Shown piece after piece: positions 4,758 through 28,682 of a stretch of DNA of 64,000 nucleotides (position 1 is the first letter of the stretch; every line of letters begins with the position of its first letter). The notes under the pieces were generated by a model that saw nothing but the letters and a program-made list of their open reading frames with translations, did not search any database and was not told the origin of the DNA. The stretch is from Ignavibacteriales bacterium (GTDB lineage: Bacteria; Bacteroidota; Ignavibacteria; UBA10030). A program made the translations under genes and the position numbers. Location: assembly GCA_026390585.1 (NCBI GenBank), contig JAPLFP010000358.1, positions 17,659-81,658 on the forward strand. Direction: 5' to 3'.

Positions 4758-5578
4758 AAACTGAAGAACGGCACGCCCAACATGAATTGTGCATCCCTTA
4801 CGTGTTTGGCCGCCTGAATCCAGGTAATCGAAAACAATTTGAGGCTCACCTCGAGACGGGATGCGAACAGTGCAAGCGCGAACTGTCTGATCTGTACGAA
4901 GCCACGGCGCTGCTTCCGTTGTTGCTCAAGCAAGAAGCTCCGCCGAGCGGATTGCGTCAGCGCCTTTTCTCAAGGCTCTCAACGAAACGGACAGAGCAGC
5001 CGCGCGGAGCAAAACCAGCCCCAACGCCTCAACGCGAAGCGGTGGAAGCACCGGTTACAAAAGCACCCCCTCACTCCTGGTATCTTTATGCTTCCATGGT
5101 GATGGGGGCTCTCATGATCGTCGGTTTGCTGCTCTTCCTCAATGATCAGCTGCGAACGACGAGTGAACTGGAGAAAAAACTGAGCGATCTGCAGGTTCAG
5201 GTACAGCAGAAGCAGGATATTTTGGGAATTCTCCAGGCTTACAGCGTCGAGATGCTGCAACTGGTAAGTGTGGAAGCGGGTTCAGAAGCATCCGGGAAGA
5301 TATTCTGGGAACCGGAGAAACGTCGCGCCGTGTTACAGGTCGTCAATCTTCCTGCCCAGCCAGTTGACAAGCAGTATCAGTTATGGTTGATGAAAGACAA
5401 GAAGTATTTCCGTGTCAGTGAGTTCGATGTGAATACGGAAAAATCCAATGTGTTCGCGGTGATGACGCTTCCCGTTGGCGACAAGAAGGAGATTGAAGAG
5501 TTTGCCATTACATTGGAGCCGCGGGGAGGAAGCACGCAACCATCGGGTGTGATACAGCTTCGTGGAGCAACAAAATAG
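4754..5578 (+). CDS. anti-sigma factor (zf-HC2-like N-terminus, single TM helix, RskA-like C-terminal domain)
   Basis: GTGA start/stop overlap with the sigma gene (4754..4757). HLETGCEQCK motif. TM helix WYLYASMVMGALMIVGLLLFL. C-terminal KQYQLWLM...ITLEPRGGSTQPSG resembles anti-sigma-K/RskA domains. Confidence 0.75.
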   Translation: MKTEERHAQHELCIPYVFGRLNPGNRKQFEAHLETGCEQCKRELSDLYEATALLPLLLKQEAPPSGLRQRLFSRLSTKRTEQPRGAKPAPTPQREAVEAPVTKAPPHSWYLYASMVMGALMIVGLLLFLNDQLRTTSELEKKLSDLQVQVQQKQDILGILQAYSVEMLQLVSVEAGSEASGKIFWEPEKRRAVLQVVNLPAQPVDKQYQLWLMKDKKYFRVSEFDVNTEKSNVFAVMTLPVGDKKEIEEFAITLEPRGGSTQPSGVIQLRGATK

Positions 5579-5605
5579 ATCAATCGGAACGCGGTACAAA
5601 GCCAA

Positions 5606-5636
5606 AAGGGAGAGCTTAGCTCTCCCTTGTTTGTTT
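5606..5636. terminator. bidirectional rho-independent terminator between convergent genes
   Basis: aagggagagc (5606..5615), tta, gctctccctt (5619..5628): a 10-bp stem. It is followed by tgtttgttt on the plus strand and preceded by ccaaaa (TTTTGG on the minus strand). Confidence 0.65.
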
Positions 5637-5661
5637 CAACCCTCATCGCACATCGTGCAAC

Positions 5662-6888
5662 CTAAGCCAATGAGAGAGCCTGCTCAAAATCGGCAATGAG
5701 ATCCTCAATTCCCTCAATTCCGACAGAAATTCTGATCATTCCCGGTGTCACACCGTGTTGACGGAGTTCAGCGTCAGACATGAAGATATGTGAGGAATAG
5801 ACCGGAATACTGACAAGCGTTTCCACGCCGCCAAGCGACATCGCGTTCACTGCGATTTTGAGATTGTCGCATACGCGCGCGGCCGCCTCAACGGCAGATC
5901 GGCCTTTCGAAGGCTTCACTTCGATGGTGACCATTCCACCATATCCTGACATCTGCTTCTTCGCAAGCTGATGTTTGGAAAACGACAGTAGCCCCGGGTA
6001 AAGAACCTTCTTGATCTTACTGTGTTTCTCGAGTGCCCGGGCAAGCGTCAGGGCATTCTCGTTCTGTTTGTGAACTCGCAGCTCAAACGTCTTCAGGCTG
6101 CGGGTGAGTAAATACGCCGCAAATGGATCAGCACAGCCCCCGTGATACTTTGCCAACCCCTTCACCCGCTTCACAAAATCTGATGCGCCGACAACAAGTC
6201 CGGCAATGATATCACTATGGCCGCCAAGGTATTTCGTTGCGCTCTCGACGATGACGTCTGCGCCCAGTGCGAACGGGTCCTGATTCACAATTGATGCAAA
6301 GGTGTTGTCAACCATTACAGGGATCTTCTTGCCGGACTTTCGTTCAGCGCTCCGCGTGTACTTGACGATCTCGGCGATGTCGACGAGGTCCAGCGTCGGA
6401 TTTGTCGGTGTCTCAACATAGACGATGGTGGTTTTTGGCGTGACGAGTCTTTCGATCTGGTCGAGATGGTCCGGATGTACAAACTTGACGGTGATGCCGT
6501 TGTGCGGCAGCTCGTCGCGGAACCAGCGGTACGTACCGCCGTACAACGCCGCCGTGCTGATGATCTCATCGCCCGGCTTCGTGAAAGTGAGGATCGCGGT
6601 GGTAATTGCCGCCATGCCGGAGGAAAAAAGTGCAGCGGCTTCGCCTCGTTCCATGAGAGCGATTTTTTCCTCGACGTCGTGCACCGTGGGATTATGGTAG
6701 CGCGTGTAAACGTACACCGAGGGATCGCCCTTGGCATAGCGGACAGCATCCTCGGAACTTTCAAACCGATAGGTGGAGGTTTGATAGATCGGTGTCGCTA
6801 CCGGTCCCTTGTAGGCGTAGAGCTTGTTGCCATGAATCGCCCGGGTGGAAAGAGAAGGAGTACCGCCTGATCGTTTTTCCTTTTTCAT
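5662..6888 (-). CDS. Cys/Met-metabolism PLP-dependent enzyme (methionine gamma-lyase / cystathionine gamma-synthase type)
   Basis: 408 aa. PLP-lysine motif ESATKYLGGHSD. N-terminal STRAIHG...PIYQTSTY, typical of the family. Subfamily cannot be resolved by eye. Confidence 0.85.
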   Translation of the reverse strand: MKKEKRSGGTPSLSTRAIHGNKLYAYKGPVATPIYQTSTYRFESSEDAVRYAKGDPSVYVYTRYHNPTVHDVEEKIALMERGEAAALFSSGMAAITTAILTFTKPGDEIISTAALYGGTYRWFRDELPHNGITVKFVHPDHLDQIERLVTPKTTIVYVETPTNPTLDLVDIAEIVKYTRSAERKSGKKIPVMVDNTFASIVNQDPFALGADVIVESATKYLGGHSDIIAGLVVGASDFVKRVKGLAKYHGGCADPFAAYLLTRSLKTFELRVHKQNENALTLARALEKHSKIKKVLYPGLLSFSKHQLAKKQMSGYGGMVTIEVKPSKGRSAVEAAARVCDNLKIAVNAMSLGGVETLVSIPVYSSHIFMSDAELRQHGVTPGMIRISVGIEGIEDLIADFEQALSLA

Positions 6889-6964: not shown

Positions 6965-9436
6965 CTACTTTCCGACAAGCGTTGTTTCGAAAAGCTTCAA
7001 GATGCGTTTGTACTCGTTCATCCAGCTTGTCGGTTCCTTGAAGCCGTGATCTTCAACCGGAAAGACTGCAAGCTCCCAATTGTCCTTCTTCAATTCAATG
7101 AGCCGTTGGACAAGACGCACGGCATCCTGGAAATGAACGTTTTCATCGACCATTCCGTGACAAATCAAGAGCGCACCCTTGAGACCGTTGGCGAAGTAGA
7201 TCGGCGAGCTCTGACGGTATGCAAGAGTGTCGTCTTGGGGTATGTTGAGAATCTCCGATGTGTATCCCTGGTTGTAATGAGCCCAATCGGTGACGGGTCG
7301 AAGGGCCGCACCGGCAGCGAAAACATCGGGAGCGGTGAACAAAGCCATGAGTGTCATGAACCCGCCATACGATCCACCATAGAGCCCGATTCTCTTCGGG
7401 TCGACACCGTGATTCTGAACCAGCCATTTTGCCCCATCAACCTCATCATTGAGATCCTTTCCGCCCATATGGCGATAGACGGCAGTTCTCCAATCCCTCC
7501 CCAATCCGGCGCTGCCACGATAGTCTAGGTCCAGGACAGTGTAGCCCTTATCGGCGAGCAGGTTGTTGAACATATACTCGTGAAAGTATTCACTCCACCA
7601 TTTGTGTGCGTTCTGGAGATAGCCGGCACCGTGTACAAAGATCACCGCGGCCCCGTTGGGATGATCCGGCTTGTAGAGTCGCACAGGGATGGCGGCGCTG
7701 TCGCGCGCCGTGATAGTAAGAATCTCCGGTGCCCGCCAATCATATGCTCGAAATTCCGGCGATGCAGAAAATGTGATTTGCTGAGCCTTCGCGCCGGGCT
7801 TGTTGTCCATCAGATACAACTCGGGCATCTTGTTGCTGAACGAGTAAAGGAGTGCCGCGCGGTCTTCACGTGGAGACAAGGTGACATCGTTCCGTCCCTC
7901 CGTCGTCGTGATGCGTGTTCGCTGGCCGCCTTCGAGCGGCATCGAGTAGAAATGACGCTCTCCATAGTGTACCTCGTTTGAGCTGAAATACCAGCGCTTC
8001 TTATCCTTCGATATCTGTGGACTGTAGACTTCAAATGTTCCTTTTGTAAGCTGGGTTTTGATTTTTCCATCGAGGGTCACAGTATACAAATGTGACCAGC
8101 CATCTTCTTCAGATTGGAAATAGATCCGCCGCGAGTCGGGCATCCAGCCAACACTGGCACCGAAACCGAAACCGCGAATACCGGGTCCGCCGATCCACGC
8201 ATCGTCATGCTGATGCTCTAGCACTGTCGTGAATTTTGCCTTCTCGGCTTCTAGCAGCACAATCCACCGGTCTTTATGGTCGTTGGAAAAGACCTGGGCA
8301 AACGCGTGTTTGCCGTCTTCCGACCAGTATGGCCCATTGAACGAAACAGGCCGTGGCCGCTGTCTCATCCTCACGGTATCCTTGGCAGATTTTGCCGGGA
8401 AGATTCCGGGGATATCATCAACTCTGATCTGCTGAACAGAGTCGAGAGCGATGTTGTAGACGTAGAATTCGTTCACTGACGGCGTCTCGCCGACCTTGGT
8501 GCGTCCGGCGATATCCTCTGTATAGCCGCTCTCAGTGACGTAGTTCGGTACGATGGTTCGCTTGAGATCGGTTGAAGGCTGTGTCATCGTGAAGGTGACG
8601 AACCGTTCATCGGGTGAAAGAAGAAACCCGAAGGCGGATTTCTGTCCAGTGTTGTACTGCTTGGGTCTTTTGAAATCCAGGAGTTCCGACAACTTCTTTT
8701 GTGCATCGCGTTCGGCCTTTCGTTCTCTCAATACCTCAAAGAGCTCCATTTGCTGCTTATCAAGATACTTAGGAGCATCTGCCCTCAAGGCATCTCGCGA
8801 GGCACCTCGTCCCTGGAAGCCTGAAAACTGACCCTCTGCCGCGCCCCTTGGTGAATCCTGCGGCGCGCCACCCCCCTGAATGTTAGTAATCTGCACTTCC
8901 GCGGCCGTCTTCAAATCACGCACGAAGAGATTTCCTGCGCGCTCGAAAACAATCTTCTGCTCATCAGAAGAAAATCTCGGGTTCGATTCAGGTGTTGATG
9001 TGCTGGTCAGTTGAATTTCTTTTTTGGTGCGGATGTCGAGGAGAAAAATGTCTCCGCTTTTGGTGTACAGTTTCTTTGACCAATCCTTGCTATAGACGCC
9101 GGTGCGCCCGGGGAGGTGCTTGCGTTCCTCGATGGTGAGGAGTCGTGGTGTGCCACCCTTGGCGCTGACGACAAAGAGAGAGTCGGGCTCGGCTCCGCGG
9201 CCCCGTGCAGCAGCGGCACCTCCTTGCCCCAGCTCAACATAGAGCGACTCGCCATCTTCTGACCAGAACACGCGCGAAGGCGAAGCCCCCATCCATTGCG
9301 AATCGCGCATGATGGTGTCCACCGTAAGCCAACCACGTGTGGACTTGTTTGGAGTCACCTGCCGGGAAAATGAATCGAGTGACAGAAAAACAACAGCGGA
9401 AAGAATAATGACCGTGTACCGGAGTCCAGACTTCAT
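6965..9436 (-). CDS. S9 family serine peptidase (prolyl oligopeptidase / DPP-like, beta-propeller plus alpha/beta hydrolase)
   Basis: Nucleophile motif LYGGSYGG, later GMVDENV and VEDHGF (Asp/His candidates). Signal-like start MKSGLRYTVIILSAVVFLSL at ATG 9436. The upstream ATG 9472 from the ORF track is also possible. Confidence 0.85.
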   Translation of the reverse strand: MKSGLRYTVIILSAVVFLSLDSFSRQVTPNKSTRGWLTVDTIMRDSQWMGASPSRVFWSEDGESLYVELGQGGAAAARGRGAEPDSLFVVSAKGGTPRLLTIEERKHLPGRTGVYSKDWSKKLYTKSGDIFLLDIRTKKEIQLTSTSTPESNPRFSSDEQKIVFERAGNLFVRDLKTAAEVQITNIQGGGAPQDSPRGAAEGQFSGFQGRGASRDALRADAPKYLDKQQMELFEVLRERKAERDAQKKLSELLDFKRPKQYNTGQKSAFGFLLSPDERFVTFTMTQPSTDLKRTIVPNYVTESGYTEDIAGRTKVGETPSVNEFYVYNIALDSVQQIRVDDIPGIFPAKSAKDTVRMRQRPRPVSFNGPYWSEDGKHAFAQVFSNDHKDRWIVLLEAEKAKFTTVLEHQHDDAWIGGPGIRGFGFGASVGWMPDSRRIYFQSEEDGWSHLYTVTLDGKIKTQLTKGTFEVYSPQISKDKKRWYFSSNEVHYGERHFYSMPLEGGQRTRITTTEGRNDVTLSPREDRAALLYSFSNKMPELYLMDNKPGAKAQQITFSASPEFRAYDWRAPEILTITARDSAAIPVRLYKPDHPNGAAVIFVHGAGYLQNAHKWWSEYFHEYMFNNLLADKGYTVLDLDYRGSAGLGRDWRTAVYRHMGGKDLNDEVDGAKWLVQNHGVDPKRIGLYGGSYGGFMTLMALFTAPDVFAAGAALRPVTDWAHYNQGYTSEILNIPQDDTLAYRQSSPIYFANGLKGALLICHGMVDENVHFQDAVRLVQRLIELKKDNWELAVFPVEDHGFKEPTSWMNEYKRILKLFETTLVGK

Positions 9437-23230: not shown

Positions 23231-24487
23231 TTAGCCTCCAATAATTCCGGAGATCAATAACACAGCGCTGAGGATGATAAGCACAATGGACGTCGTCCAT
23301 CCGATCACATTCTGATAGCGCTTGTTTATGTACTCTCCCATGATCTCTGTCTTGTTGATGATCACCATCATGCAGATGAGCACCACGGGGAGGAGAATGG
23401 CGTTCAAGACCTGCGTCCAAATTGTAATGGCGATCAAGGGAGCGTTCGGAAGCAGAATGATGCCGACAGCGATCAACATCGTGAATGTAAACAATGCATA
23501 AAATTGAGGGGCGTCGGAGAACTTCTTGTCAATGCCGGCCTCGAACCCAAATGCCTCGCAGATGAAAAAGGCGGTTGCCAACGGCAAAATGGCAGCAGAG
23601 AACACCGAGGCTACGAACAAACCGAACGCAAAGACCTGGGAAGCAAGGACTCCGGCAAACGGCTTCAGCGACATGGCGGCGTCCTTTGCCTCGATAATCT
23701 GTATGTTGTTGACGTGGAGCGTCGCGGCGCACGAAACAATAATAAAGAACGCAACAACAACAGTGATCACGCAACCGACGACAACATCCCATACCGTGTA
23801 CTTATAATCAGCAATCTTGATTCCCTTTTCGATAACGGAGGATTGCATATAGAACTGCATCCATGGGGCCACCGTCGTTCCCACCAATCCCAGCACTGTG
23901 GTGATGTAAGGGGTATCCCACTGAACGGTGGGTGCCAGCATCGCTTTTCCGATCTCACCCCAATTCGGTTTGGCTAGAACCGCCGATATGATATAGGAAA
24001 GAAGGAACACACTGAACAAGAGAAAGATCTTCTCGGAGATCTTGTAATTTCCCTTGACCACAAGAACCCAGACAGCGATGGCAGCGAGTGGCACGGAGAT
24101 GTTCTTGTCGACATTGAAAACCATCAGGCTTCCCGCAACACCCGCAAACTCCGTCGCGGTATTGCCGATGTCTGCGATCAACAGTAAGACAAAAATGTAG
24201 AAGGTAATGCGAACACCAAAGTTTTCGCGGATAAGATCGGCCAATCCCTTGCCAGTGACGATCCCCATGCGTGCATTCATCTCTTGTACCGTCAGTAGCG
24301 CGATGAACGATGGCAGAAGCGTCCAGAGTAATCGATATCCATAGTTTGCTCCGGCAACCGAGTATGTGGTGATTCCGCCAGCGTCATTGTCGACGCTCCC
24401 CGTGATGATGCCCGGTCCCAGCACGCTGAGAAAAATCAGCAGGTTGCGGAACATCGGCCGCTCTTTCATTCTTTGGAGGAAGGTCAT
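23231..24487 (-). CDS. Nramp-fold transporter with NRMT-type (Mg2+-transporter-like) binding-site residues
   Basis: 418 aa, about 11 TM helices. TM1 LGPGIITGSVDNDAGGITTY, where canonical DPGN reads D35-A-G-G38. TM6 GLVGTTVAPWMQF, where canonical A-x-x-M-P-H reads T204-T-V-A207-P-W. Confidence 0.8.
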   Translation of the reverse strand: MTFLQRMKERPMFRNLLIFLSVLGPGIITGSVDNDAGGITTYSVAGANYGYRLLWTLLPSFIALLTVQEMNARMGIVTGKGLADLIRENFGVRITFYIFVLLLIADIGNTATEFAGVAGSLMVFNVDKNISVPLAAIAVWVLVVKGNYKISEKIFLLFSVFLLSYIISAVLAKPNWGEIGKAMLAPTVQWDTPYITTVLGLVGTTVAPWMQFYMQSSVIEKGIKIADYKYTVWDVVVGCVITVVVAFFIIVSCAATLHVNNIQIIEAKDAAMSLKPFAGVLASQVFAFGLFVASVFSAAILPLATAFFICEAFGFEAGIDKKFSDAPQFYALFTFTMLIAVGIILLPNAPLIAITIWTQVLNAILLPVVLICMMVIINKTEIMGEYINKRYQNVIGWTTSIVLIILSAVLLISGIIGG

Positions 24488-24488
24488 A

Positions 24489-25790
24489 TTATCCCTCGGC
24501 CGCCTGTTTTACCTTGGGGAACACTGCGTCGAGCGTGTCACCGATAGTGATGAAACCCTGAAGCTTGTCATTGTCGTCAACGACAGGAATAGCATCGAAC
24601 TTGTACTTGAAGAAGAGTTGTGCCATTTTCTTGATGCTGGAATCAACCCGCACCGAGACGATATTTCCCCGCATGATCGTGGCGATAGGCGTTGTTCCCT
24701 TTGTCGAAAGCAACTGCCGCAGCGTGACGAGTCCTTTGAGCCGCTCCTCCTCATCGATAACGTAAATGTAGTAGAGAAGCTCCGCTCGTTTCGTCTCCTC
24801 CTTCACGATCTTCATCACTTCCCGGACGGTCTGTGTTTCCCTGACAGTGACGAAGTTGGTATTCATAATACTCCCAACACCGGAAGCGGACATTCTGGAA
24901 AGTTCATGAATCTCGTCAACCCGTTCTTGGGTCAGAAGGGCAAAAACCGCCTCACGTTTTTCCGCGAGAATTTCGTCCAGCAAATCGACGGTCTCATCCA
25001 TCTCCATTTCCGTTATGATGCTCGCGAGGTGGTCGTTGTCCAGCGATTCCGCAAGCTGGACGCGAAGATTCATCGGCATCTCCTGAAGTGTTGCAGCGGC
25101 GATGGCGGGGCTGATCGACTCAAGAAGCGACGTTCGTTCATCGGTGCCGAGGTCTTCGAGGATGTCCGCAAGATCGGCAGGGAGAATGGAAGACAACTTC
25201 GAAGAGTCCGGCCTTAAGACGACAGAGCCGTTGACGTTGGTAGCAGTCGTCGGTTGTACGTTTTTCCATGTCAAGAACTTATCGTTGATCTCGCGCGCAA
25301 AGAACCAGTTGAAAATGGGATTGATCACGTTCAGCCAGCCGAGTCGCCGCAGCAACCCTTTGAAACCGATATCGATGTGCACAAGCCAGAGATTGGGGTT
25401 TTCCTTTGAGGAATTGTCAATGAGCAATTGCAAATCGTTCACGCGAACCAGCTTATAGCCTGACGTAGATATGATCTGCTTGTCGAGAAAGGTCTTTTTC
25501 AGCAGAATCTCATTCTCGATTGACTCTGAGGTGGTCTGATCGACTTCAACTGGATAATCGACCGTGACATGCTTTTTGAAGACCGTCAGCCGCACGTGAT
25601 TCCATGGAATGTACACAGGGTCCAGTGAATCCTTCATGAGAGCGATGATGGCTGTGATTTTTGGATAGACGTGACTTGTGCGCGCGGCAAGGTCAACAAT
25701 CCTACCTATTTTCACTCCGCTTGTGGCGTTGAAGATCGGCAGATGCAAGATCTCGGACAGATAGATGAAATTGAAATTGTCGCCGCTCAT
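24489..25790 (-). CDS. soluble PRC-barrel / MgtE-N-domain / CBS-pair protein (MgtE cytosolic module without membrane domain)
   Basis: 433 aa with no hydrophobic helices. PRC-like segments (LHLPIFNATSGVKIGRIVDLAA; FLDKQIISTSGYKLVRVNDLQLLID). MgtE_N-like LPADLADILEDLGTDERTSLLESISPAIAAATLQEM...MDETVDLLDEI. Two CBS repeats at the C-terminus. The TAA stop (24491..24489) lies 1 nt before the Nramp ATG (24487). Confidence 0.8.
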   Translation of the reverse strand: MSGDNFNFIYLSEILHLPIFNATSGVKIGRIVDLAARTSHVYPKITAIIALMKDSLDPVYIPWNHVRLTVFKKHVTVDYPVEVDQTTSESIENEILLKKTFLDKQIISTSGYKLVRVNDLQLLIDNSSKENPNLWLVHIDIGFKGLLRRLGWLNVINPIFNWFFAREINDKFLTWKNVQPTTATNVNGSVVLRPDSSKLSSILPADLADILEDLGTDERTSLLESISPAIAAATLQEMPMNLRVQLAESLDNDHLASIITEMEMDETVDLLDEILAEKREAVFALLTQERVDEIHELSRMSASGVGSIMNTNFVTVRETQTVREVMKIVKEETKRAELLYYIYVIDEEERLKGLVTLRQLLSTKGTTPIATIMRGNIVSVRVDSSIKKMAQLFFKYKFDAIPVVDDNDKLQGFITIGDTLDAVFPKVKQAAEG

Positions 25791-25987
25791 GGAATGGCCT
25801 TTGAATCCCTGAAGTTGCTGGAAGATACCACGAAAGATCGAAAAAGTCTATGAATTCCCGGGAGAAGGTGCCGGAAAACTCACTGGACTCGGGGAGGACA
25901 TGCAACACTCGGGGTTGCAGAGAGCCGCGCGCTCTTCACTCCGTCAGGATGGTTTGCATCGACCTGTGGCAGCGCGGTCGGATGGTT

Positions 25988-27133
25988 CTAGAGCCTGCCG
26001 CGAAGAATTTTCCAGCGGTCGATAACCTCGTCGCCGCGAACAACGGAGTAGTGGTCGAAGTTTGCAGCCGTCAGGCAGGAATGGTGTTCGAGGACCCGGA
26101 TCTTGTCTCCGATCTTGAAGTTGTCAGCAATGGTTCGGGGGTTTGAGATCAGCACTTTCCCGTGCTCCTGGGAGAGGATTTTCATATGCACGTGGGGATG
26201 AAGGCGCTTGCGTTCATAATCCTCAAACACGATACCAATGTCCATGTCGTTGCTGATATGAGTTGGGCCGAGGTCTTTCGAAAGAGCGAGAGCCCCAGAA
26301 TCGGTAATAAAGTACGAAGCACCGGCTTGATGCGAAACGACCGTCGCCATGATACTGAGCGCACAATCAGAGACACCGCACATTCCGAGCATCACTTGGG
26401 TATAATCATAAAAAGCATAGTTTCCGGGCCGCATTTCGCTGACACCTTCAAGGTTTTCAATGACCGACATGGTAGGTGTTGAGCCAACACTGATCATGGG
26501 AACCTTGTAACCGCGGACTCTCATCCGCTCGGCGAATTCCACCACCACATTCCGCTCCTGCTCGGCCACCGCTAGAACCTCGTCGCGGTTGTGGGCCTCG
26601 TACGAATGCCCGGCGTGAGTGAGAATGCCATCGAAAATAATATTTCTGCAGTCATTCAGCACGCGGATGAGCTGCTCAGCGAACGGAGACTTCGGGTCAA
26701 CGCCTGCACGGTGGTAGCCGCAATCGACTTTCAGCCAAACGTGGAAACGCTCGTTGCCTGACCGTTCGATAGCCTCCAAACGGTCAACCATTTCCATGCT
26801 GTCGATAACGAGACGAACCGTAGCTTTCTCGTTGAGTTCGACAACACGATCGACGTGCGCCGGAACGAGAGGAAATGCCCACGTAATGTCGTTGAACCCT
26901 GCAGCAATAAATTGTTCAAGCTCGTAGACAGTCGAAACCGTAATGCCGCGTGCACCCAACTCCAATTGATGATTCGCAATCTCGATGCATTTGTGTGTCT
27001 TGATATGAGGCCGCAGCGTGACACCAAGCGAGTTGGCGCGATCCTGCATCCTTGTGAGATTTCGTTCGAGAATCCCATGGTCGATAAGGATTGCCGGAGT
27101 CACCAAATCATAGATCGATGTGGGTGTTCGCAT
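25988..27133 (-). CDS. DSD1-family PLP enzyme (D-serine dehydratase / D-threonine aldolase-like, alanine racemase N-terminal fold)
   Basis: Start placed at ATG 27133 (MRTPTSIYDLVTPAILIDHGILERNL). PLP-lysine context LRPHIKTHKCIEIA. The 61 codons upstream in the ORF track (to 27316) look non-coding. Confidence 0.75.
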   Translation of the reverse strand: MRTPTSIYDLVTPAILIDHGILERNLTRMQDRANSLGVTLRPHIKTHKCIEIANHQLELGARGITVSTVYELEQFIAAGFNDITWAFPLVPAHVDRVVELNEKATVRLVIDSMEMVDRLEAIERSGNERFHVWLKVDCGYHRAGVDPKSPFAEQLIRVLNDCRNIIFDGILTHAGHSYEAHNRDEVLAVAEQERNVVVEFAERMRVRGYKVPMISVGSTPTMSVIENLEGVSEMRPGNYAFYDYTQVMLGMCGVSDCALSIMATVVSHQAGASYFITDSGALALSKDLGPTHISNDMDIGIVFEDYERKRLHPHVHMKILSQEHGKVLISNPRTIADNFKIGDKIRVLEHHSCLTAANFDHYSVVRGDEVIDRWKILRGRL

Positions 27134-27400
27134 AGGGTTTGATGCGTGAAGGCCTCGCCCGCGGCGCGGCCTTGATACCAACAACATGTGCAGAAATGCT
27201 CGCCAATCCCTCTGGCGACACAAGTCTGTGATTACGTCCTCATCACCAAGATGGCAGAACCCGGCGACAACGTTGATGGCGAGCGCACACACGCATGGAG
27301 AGTGCTGGCAAACCACACGTTAGCCGGGGAGGGCGCCTCTGGTAGGCAGAATGTAATGTTCCTTCGGTAGAAGGGCAAGGCGGGGGTCGTCGCAATTGAG

Positions 27401-27455: not shown

Positions 27456-28682
27456 CTATTCAAACCACGAGACAACCTCAAAGTTGCCCGTCGTCGGAAA
27501 GAACGGCGGAGCGTCGTTCATCAGGCGATCGTCGTAGTATGTGCCCCCCGGCTGGAAGCCGTGTATGACTGTCGGATTCTGGCCGCCGGAAAAGACGCCC
27601 GTGTAGCCGCCGATGTTCTGGATCATGCCGCCAACCGTGATCATCTTTCCTTCGACCGGGCGCGTGTTGTAGTTTTCAGCCCAGAGGCCATCGGTTCGTG
27701 AGAATATGGACCCCATGAGGGTAAAATCGTTGTTGGGACCGCGATTTGCGGGAACGTCACTGATATAAAGTTTGTCTTCGGCGCAGAGTCCGAGCATGTC
27801 GGTCGAATAACCGGACCGCGGGTCAGTATTGTACGTGATATCTCCATCGATCCAGACATATTTCCTGGCGCCAACAGTCACTCTGCCGTTCAGCACTCCC
27901 TTGATGTGCAAGTTGTTCTCATTGCACCAGACGGCACCGTTTGGAGCAAATGTTGTGAGGGGCTCGATCGTCCAACCGCCGCCACTCCAGTCGGTATTGC
28001 CATCAATTCTCCATTTCACATTTCCGTTTGCCAAGAACTCTATGAAGACCGGCTGGTTTCCGGACATCTGAAGCCACTTGCCGCCGGAGTTCGCCGCCGT
28101 CTTGAGAGGAGTGAGGTCCGATGGAAGAGTGACATTCACACCGTTGTCATACCCCCCCTTGAACACTGGATGTGCTAGCCCCTGGTAGTTGTTGATACCG
28201 TTCAGGCTGGTAGCGCGTTGCATGAACACGGGATTGCCGGCCACGTTCAGGAAATTATTGCAGTGGAATGGTCCCCAGATGGTGTCGCCGGTGATCCAGT
28301 ACCCGTTTTGGTCTGTGACGCTGTAGTAGTTGAATCTTGAGAAGCTGCTTGGTTGGAGGACGCAGGCCACAACGCTGGTGGTGCCTGCAAATGTGCCTGT
28401 AGACGTCATCTTCACCTGGTTGCCCCCAAGGTCTACCACTTGGACGCTGAAGGTGCCGCCGCCAAAACTCTTGTTGGAGAACCCAGCACGCCAGAGCGGA
28501 TTTTCGAAGATCGCTCGGGAGGCGAGGTTCATGCCAGCTCCAGCCAGGCTGTGGGCCATAGCTGAGTTGTTGTAGTACGTGTAGTTTTCCATCGCTGAGT
28601 TCGAAACATTGGAAATGTTCGAACCGATCATCATCAGCGCTGTTGTAAAACCTAAAACCATAATCAGTGCAGACCGACCCAT
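27456..28682 (-). CDS. PilX_N-like membrane-anchored protein with beta-helix-like ectodomain, paralog 1
   Basis: 408 aa. N-terminus MGRSALIMVLGFTTALMMIGSNI...AMAHSLAGAGMNLASR (PilX N-terminal pattern). SD AGGAGGGTG upstream. Repetitive beta-strand-rich body. Tail PTTGNFEVVSWFE. Confidence 0.6.
   Translation of the reverse strand: MGRSALIMVLGFTTALMMIGSNISNVSNSAMENYTYYNNSAMAHSLAGAGMNLASRAIFENPLWRAGFSNKSFGGGTFSVQVVDLGGNQVKMTSTGTFAGTTSVVACVLQPSSFSRFNYYSVTDQNGYWITGDTIWGPFHCNNFLNVAGNPVFMQRATSLNGINNYQGLAHPVFKGGYDNGVNVTLPSDLTPLKTAANSGGKWLQMSGNQPVFIEFLANGNVKWRIDGNTDWSGGGWTIEPLTTFAPNGAVWCNENNLHIKGVLNGRVTVGARKYVWIDGDITYNTDPRSGYSTDMLGLCAEDKLYISDVPANRGPNNDFTLMGSIFSRTDGLWAENYNTRPVEGKMITVGGMIQNIGGYTGVFSGGQNPTVIHGFQPGGTYYDDRLMNDAPPFFPTTGNFEVVSWFE

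Follow-up and report, generated by a model that had tools for sequence, protein, structure and literature searches.

Two adjacent genes occupy positions 23,231–25,790 of a 64,000-nucleotide stretch of DNA from an Ignavibacteriales bacterium (contig JAPLFP010000358.1; the whole stretch is hereafter called the window). The upstream gene (24489..25790, minus strand) encodes a 433-amino-acid soluble PRC-PRC-MgtE_N-CBS-CBS protein, an MgtE-like NRMT partner that we refer to as the partner, identified from the open reading frame (ORF) list, Pfam, a match in the PDB and an AlphaFold2 model. The downstream gene (23231..24487, minus strand) encodes a 418-amino-acid SLC11/Nramp-family transporter in the NRMT clade, recognized by its Pfam Nramp match and its match to EleNRMT. 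Both ORFs are long and have strong profile matches, which places them well above chance. At the junction between them (24485..24491, minus strand) the DNA reads GGA-TAA-T-ATG, giving the partner's stop codon (24491..24489), a single spacer base (24488) and the transporter's start codon (24487..24485), with a GAGGG run 5 nucleotides (nt) before the ATG. The two minus-strand ORFs and their 1-nt separation, first described in a prediction made from this sequence (hereafter the original prediction), are thus confirmed in the DNA.

A soluble MgtE-like protein and an NRMT-type transporter

Signature, bit scores and identity assign the transporter, at the level of sequence, to the NRMT clade and not to the Mn/Fe Nramps. 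Its product matches the Pfam Nramp profile (PF01566) with E = 1.2e-94 over 356 of 357 profile positions. In a search against all PDB sequences its best match was EleNRMT of Eggerthella lenta (7qia; E = 2.4e-106, 359.6 bits), whereas canonical MntH/Nramp structures (DraNramp/MntH) scored at most 98.9 bits. The alignment with EleNRMT extends over 412 residues at 43% identity with zero gaps.

The metal site points the same way. In passages of the EleNRMT report (PMC8806188) the NRMT clade is defined by a helix-1 DxxG and a helix-6 TxxA/T, replacing DxxN and A/CxxM, respectively. Read directly from the DNA, the window transporter carries D35-A-G-G38 on helix 1 (24374..24385, minus strand) and T204-T-V-A207 on helix 6 (23867..23878, minus strand), which align with NDAGGI and GTTIAPWM of EleNRMT, so that NDAGGI and GTT(V/I)APWM are common to both proteins. 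The original prediction had named these residues and called the transporter NRMT-type, and both claims were borne out. EleNRMT is described there as carrying Mg2+ and Mn2+ and not Ca2+, with no H+ coupling (Ramanadane et al. 2022, eLife 11:e74589, PMC8806188). By analogy, our best guess for the predicted transporter is EleNRMT-like Mg2+/Mn2+ transport without H+ coupling.

The C-terminal half of the partner is an MgtE cytosolic module. Pfam finds MgtE_N at residues 204–298 (24897..25181, minus strand; E = 1e-18), a helical domain, followed by a CBS pair at residues 305–423 (24522..24878, minus strand; two CBS matches, E = 7e-23). The best PDB sequence match, over partner residues 199–423, is the cytosolic domain of Thermus thermophilus MgtE (2yvy; E = 6e-31). 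The membrane part of MgtE is missing. Pfam gives no match to the MgtE membrane domain (PF01769) in the 433 residues, the NCBIfam mgtE model (TIGR00400) matches over model positions 25–251 of 450 only, its cytoplasmic part, and no hydrophobic segment appears in the protein, whose Kyte-Doolittle 19-residue mean peaks at 1.09. The partner ends 10 residues past the second CBS domain, ahead of the plug-helix position. With a diverse alignment of 63 sequences as input, AlphaFold2 gave a confident model with a predicted local distance difference test score (pLDDT) of 90.1 and a predicted template-modelling score (pTM) of 0.76; a shallower alignment gave a poor model at residues 82–195. The C-terminal half of the model superimposes on five MgtE cytosolic-domain structures in Foldseek with template-modelling (TM) scores of 0.83–0.92 and a root-mean-square deviation (rmsd) of about 2 Å.

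In the same model, two beta-rich units make up the N-terminal ~195 residues. The first is a PRC-barrel-like segment at residues 7–81 (25548..25772, minus strand). Its Pfam PRC match (PF05239) is marginal at 23.0 bits over a cut-off of 21.2; homologues score up to 49 bits, and its modelled beta-strands have pLDDT above 90. The second, at residues 94–182 (25245..25511, minus strand), is a PRC-barrel-like segment with an inserted helical hairpin. Its support from profiles is indirect: comparison of the two halves with hhalign, profile against profile, gave E = 2e-5 and a probability of 77%, and the homologue P0159 has a Pfam PRC match at residues 97–142 (33 bits). Beta-strands are present in this region of the model. 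The top 50 Foldseek matches to the whole partner model were MgtE and CBS structures only, leaving the PRC barrels without independent structural confirmation in that search. Pfam, hhalign, the model and hydropathy together agree with the predicted order of two PRC-barrel-like segments, MgtE_N and a CBS pair, with no transmembrane helices.

Conservation in the family is highest in barrel 2, where 10 of the 49 columns of the barrel core (20%) are at least 90% conserved, compared with 4–8% of columns in the other domains. The end of this barrel and the first helix after it (residues 140–155; window 25325–25372) carry the motif D-x-G-x-x-G-L-L-R-R-L-G, which comprises D140, G142, G145, R148, R149 and G151 and shows little or no variation in the whole PRC-MgtE-like subfamily.

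Homology to MgtE over only part of its length is what a decaying gene would leave, and the 433-codon ORF could in principle be an mgtE pseudogene fragment that sits beside an unrelated transporter by chance. The conservation data refute this explanation, which is almost certainly wrong. At E ≤ 1e-5 the partner has 1,729 homologues, of which those with 53–93% identity share its length of about 433 residues. A query with just its N-terminal half matches 666 representative clusters in a set of 1.84 billion proteins, and most of these matches are 415–447 residues long. Functional residues are invariant in the family, and adjacency to an NRMT gene is kept down to 30% partner identity. The 1-nt gap leaves no space for a membrane-domain remnant, and a tblastn search of the window with six MgtE membrane domains returned chance matches only (E ≥ 1), none at the locus. 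The partner is thus a member of a length-conserved, stand-alone family, whose nearest genomes to the window locus are metagenome-assembled genomes of Ignavibacteriota/Bacteroidota.

Conservation of the gene pair

Pairing of the two genes was surveyed starting from partner homologues, and the counts below are therefore counts of partners with an NRMT neighbour. A metagenome scan with a 12-sequence partner alignment added 80 loci with 30–93% partner identity. A locus was assessable if it had enough downstream DNA; 80 loci were assessable in total, including 11 from reference genomes. An NRMT gene directly follows the partner gene in all 11 reference-genome loci. Across the whole assessable set, at partner identities of 30–95%, the next gene on the same strand encodes an Nramp-fold protein in 77 of 80 loci (96%). 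Every neighbouring transporter with a readable metal site is NRMT-type (68/68), with D-G-T-A in 67 and D-G-T-C (TxxC) in one. The original prediction had proposed asking how often NRMT genes are preceded by a gene for an MgtE_N-CBS protein without transmembrane helices, and this survey, taken from the partner side, shows the adjacency to be conserved.

The pairs are also tightly joined and diverge together. The junction is a 1-nt gap at 30 loci, a 4-nt overlap at 13 and a 2-nt gap at 5, with longer spacers in the most distant group. Partner and transporter identities co-vary over 60 pairs (Spearman 0.91), the transporter evolving more slowly than the partner. In the neighbourhoods of related loci, no further gene is kept alongside the two. 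The flanks consist of lineage-specific housekeeping genes (pantothenate synthesis, NUDIX, YbeY, D-Ser-dehydratase-like, SDR). The cassette extends to Eggerthellaceae, where PRC-MgtE_N-CBS genes of 447–450 codons lie directly upstream of genes for transporters 90–92% identical to EleNRMT.

Three loci (L038, L054 and L069) have a partner homologue with no NRMT gene within ~4 kb downstream. In L069 the partner gene is followed by an Rrf2 gene (2221–2655) and ribonucleotide reductase; in L038 the genes that come next are an unknown ORF and one for a CARDB-domain protein. The transporter partner of these three proteins, if they have one, is encoded elsewhere. An Rrf2-family regulator gene also occurs in the Eggerthellaceae loci L092–L096 (~5293–5918), in convergent orientation right after the NRMT gene, and may provide lineage-specific transcriptional control of the cassette. 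In L046 a cobalamin riboswitch (8804–9019) lies downstream of the NRMT gene at a distance of ~2 kb and has no connection with the cassette.

The intergenic region 5' of the partner gene in the window (25791..25987, minus strand) is the presumed promoter site. No M-box (ykoK) or other riboswitch was found by an Rfam scan of the entire window at gathering thresholds, a permissive Rfam scan of 25600–26400 returned chance-level matches only, and no M-box was found in 16 diverse related loci. The next gene in the 5' direction (25988–27316, minus strand) encodes a D-serine-dehydratase-like/alanine-racemase-N protein, listed with a GTG start and 442 residues. Because its Pfam domain begins only at residue 78, the true start is probably downstream of the listed one, and the intergenic region before the partner gene would then be longer. 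Beyond it, an ORF of 408 codons (27456–28682, minus strand) has a hydrophobic N-terminus and no Pfam match.

Partly retained MgtE sites and membrane-bearing relatives

We compared the partner with the cytoplasmic regulatory sites Mg2–Mg7 of MgtE (PMC5882242) and with the ATP site in its CBS domain, formed by Y170, R187, D188, N203, V207 and F227 (PMC5529423). Two of the Mg2+ sites are kept. Site Mg4 (D91/D247 in T. thermophilus MgtE) corresponds to partner D265 (24996–24998) and D418 (24537–24539), and site Mg6 (D95) corresponds to D269 (24984–24986). All 38 of 38 close homologues keep the Mg4 and Mg6 ligands unchanged; across the 63-member family aspartate is kept at D269 in 62 members, at D265 in 45 and at D418 in 43. 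Equivalents of the ATP contacts are likewise conserved at Y341 (Y170), R358 (R187), V378 and F398 (F227). The D188 equivalent is Q359, which varies in the family, and the N203 equivalent, for which the mapping covered just the long forms described next, varies in those.

The PRC-PRC-MgtE_N-CBS module also occurs in proteins of ~600–656 residues that keep a membrane domain. We examined eight of these long forms (P0205, P0206, P0218, P0223, P0233, P0221, P0250 and P0265; loci L097 and L099–L105). The Pfam MgtE membrane-domain model matches five of them and not the other three. In all eight, the pore aspartate D432 of MgtE is replaced (L/T/A/S/T/M/A/M) and the GGNxGNQ motif is degenerate, while the plug-helix acidic pair E258/D259 and the Mg4/Mg6 aspartates are kept. 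The long proteins may not be Mg2+ channels at all. Long forms such as P0205, P0206 and P0218 share with the window partner the architecture and the invariant residues of barrel 2, but they keep the plug helix and a membrane domain, both of which the window partner lacks. We considered whether proteins of this length might be natural partner-NRMT fusions and rejected the idea: the membrane domain that they carry is MgtE-type, and none is an Nramp fusion.

Long forms and pore-less partners show a complementary pattern of neighbours. Only one of the five long forms with readable context, P0205, is followed by an NRMT-type gene, and none follows the other four, compared with 96% of pore-less loci. 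This pattern suggests that the NRMT supplies the permeation path that the pore-less protein is missing. At the P0205 locus (L097, 1752–4802) the membrane-bearing protein has 597 residues, and the NRMT-type gene (NDAGG / GTTVAPWM) begins 6 nt after it. This arrangement may be an evolutionary intermediate that links the membrane-bearing form with the soluble one.

A putative regulator of NRMT acting in trans

The interpretation that we put first, and regard as about evenly balanced between right and wrong, is that the partner is a trans-acting, Mg2+/ATP-responsive regulator of the NRMT, most likely a feedback inhibitor. The partner derives from the MgtE family and keeps the N domain and CBS pair with which MgtE senses cytosolic Mg2+ and ATP, with no pore or plug helix. 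Both genes would lie on one transcript and be co-translated, the tight junction favoring matched amounts of the two proteins. When cytosolic Mg2+, together with ATP, is sufficient, D265, D269 and D418 at the interface between N domain and CBS pair would bind Mg2+ and the module would close. We infer that the closed module would then dock on the cytoplasmic face of the NRMT, slowing uptake, and would let go of the transporter when Mg2+ is low. Because the window lineage lacks an M-box riboswitch, the partner would be its main Mg2+-responsive control. The evidence for a regulator of this kind is the pairing at 77 of 80 loci, the tight junctions, the co-divergence of the two proteins, the absence of a third gene, the retained Mg4/Mg6 and ATP contacts and the complementary pattern of NRMT neighbours in pore-less and long forms.

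Several points weigh against this interpretation, some at the locus itself and others in earlier work. Site Mg7 (E59) is alanine in the window partner, and site Mg5 is Lys/Asp, degenerate in the window lineage. Sites Mg2 and Mg3 (E258/D259) are absent because the protein stops short of the plug helix, the element that relays the signal to the pore in MgtE. The original prediction had spoken of the whole cytosolic regulatory part of MgtE; this holds for the N and CBS module without a pore, and it slightly overstates the case in view of the missing plug helix and the degenerate sites. The window locus also falls outside the riboswitch-controlled, Mg2+-specific NrmT subset of Shin et al. (2014), whose passages on NrmT genes use the M-box as a marker of Mg2+ specificity (PMC4072509). 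Finally, regulatory binding of the NRMT by the partner is putative, and no NRMT-specific docking surface was found on the partner. The invariant residues of barrel 2 are identical in membrane-bearing relatives that have no NRMT neighbour, which is why the motif is a property of the subfamily itself and does not mark a docking surface specific to the NRMT. The idea that the PRC barrels serve as an NRMT-docking adaptor is weakened by the same comparison.

These last observations lend something to a different explanation, in which the partner, as a sensor of Mg2+/ATP or, by way of its PRC barrels, of some other ligand, acts on a target other than the NRMT, the two genes being co-transcribed because both serve divalent-cation homeostasis. 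The three loci without a nearby NRMT gene would fit it as well. We nonetheless consider such a target quite improbable: same-strand adjacency in 96% of loci, with 1-nt or overlapping junctions, holds across phyla, nothing else is conserved in the neighbourhood, and neither Pfam nor NCBIfam finds a DNA-binding or enzymatic domain in the partner.

If the target is the NRMT, its regulation could also be positive. In that case the partner might activate the transporter, serve its assembly or stability, or act as a metallochaperone that takes Mg2+/Mn2+ at the cytoplasmic exit. Adjacency and co-divergence are equally compatible with such a role, and PRC barrels are generally protein-binding modules, as in RimM and the reaction-centre H subunit. 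Passages of Shin et al. themselves offer "metal chaperone activity" as an alternative to feedback (PMC4072509). The functional data run the other way. In the experiments reported in those passages, the NRMT of Clostridium acetobutylicum complemented Mg2+-transport-deficient Bacillus subtilis without its partner, and co-expression of the Acidobacterium capsulatum partner with its NrmT in B. subtilis left rescue unchanged (PMC4072509). EleNRMT, too, was characterised as a transporter alone. Transport by the C. acetobutylicum and E. lenta proteins without a partner is easier to reconcile with a regulator than with an obligatory subunit. Moreover, Mg2+ is abundant and we know of no chaperone for it. 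On balance a positive factor seems unlikely to us.

For the feedback inhibitor, the A. capsulatum experiment, which is the single published test, counts as a further difficulty, because co-expression had no effect there; such an assay could reveal activation and hardly inhibition. The same passages describe the A. capsulatum NrmT as acting mainly as a Mn2+ transporter (PMC4072509), so the ion sensed by the partner may not always be Mg2+.

A more specific form of the regulatory interpretation adds an evolutionary route. Here the partner is a detachable, Mg2+/ATP-operated gate that binds the NRMT directly; its source would be PRC-bearing, MgtE-like membrane proteins in which the pore aspartate was already gone, the membrane domain disappearing once the NRMT supplied the permeation path. 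We advance this tentatively, as somewhat short of an even chance. If it is true, NRMT would be the first carrier of the SLC11/LeuT fold whose control in trans comes from a sensor module of an unrelated channel family. The feedback idea itself dates from 2014; the route and the PRC barrels would be what is new.

Structural and functional work on NRMTs has looked at the transporter by itself. Should the partner prove to be a Mg2+/ATP gate acting in trans, the published transport properties of NRMTs would describe the unregulated half of a system, and the pair would show clearly that a regulatory module can pass from one transporter fold to an unrelated one. The survey offers an experimental target in the close relatives of EleNRMT that have a partner gene directly upstream, and the analysis supplies residues for such work: D265, D269, D418, F398 and R148/R149 of barrel 2.

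The arrangement itself is not new. The original prediction regarded it as undescribed, and in this it was mistaken, since the pairing was published with a feedback hypothesis and one test. Passages of Shin et al. (2014, PLoS Genet 10:e1004429, PMC4072509) report a gene for an MgtE cytoplasmic domain beside most NrmT genes ("mgtE-nramp operons", their Fig. S5) in Firmicutes and Acidobacteria, and speculate that its product provides cytoplasmic feedback regulation. Our literature searches turned up no subsequent work on the partner, nor any paper naming both PRC-barrel and MgtE. The parts of the EleNRMT paper covered here (PMC8806188) mention MgtE only as an unrelated Mg2+ transporter and contain neither "CBS" nor "operon". 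The window locus is a further example of a known gene pair and establishes no new principle. What our analysis adds is the double PRC barrel, conserved in the NRMT partner and an incremental extension of the N plus CBS description, together with the conservation of the Mg4/Mg6 and ATP contacts, the absence of an M-box here and the membrane-bearing relatives without a pore aspartate.

Besides the long forms, three known systems place the pair. The MgtE channel of T. thermophilus (TC 1.A.26; 2yvx, 2yvy and 5x9g) has a homologous N domain and CBS pair (TM score 0.83, rmsd 2.2 Å), and its Mg4/Mg6 acidic ligands and the ATP contacts Y170, R187 and F227 are kept in the partner. MgtE, however, has a plug helix and a five-helix pore (PF01769) with D432, both absent from the partner, whereas the partner has ~195 extra N-terminal residues that form the two PRC barrels and is encoded apart from the transporter that it presumably controls. 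EleNRMT has the same metal-site motifs as the window transporter and relatives with a partner gene upstream; it differs in having been characterised alone, as a transporter only, while the window transporter is known from sequence. The third system is formed by the pairs of Shin et al., A. capsulatum Acp2976/Acp2977 and the C. acetobutylicum Ca_c0685 operon, in which a gene for an MgtE cytoplasmic domain likewise lies immediately upstream on the same strand. The A. capsulatum pair has no M-box, as at the window locus. In C. acetobutylicum, by contrast, two separate genes make up the partner and a riboswitch controls the operon, whereas the window partner is a single gene without a riboswitch. 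The passages of Shin et al. on the partner call it a "small protein" and leave a double PRC N-terminal half unmentioned, whereas the window partner carries a double PRC barrel and, unlike their examples, comes with its transporter from an uncultured Ignavibacteriota/Bacteroidota lineage.

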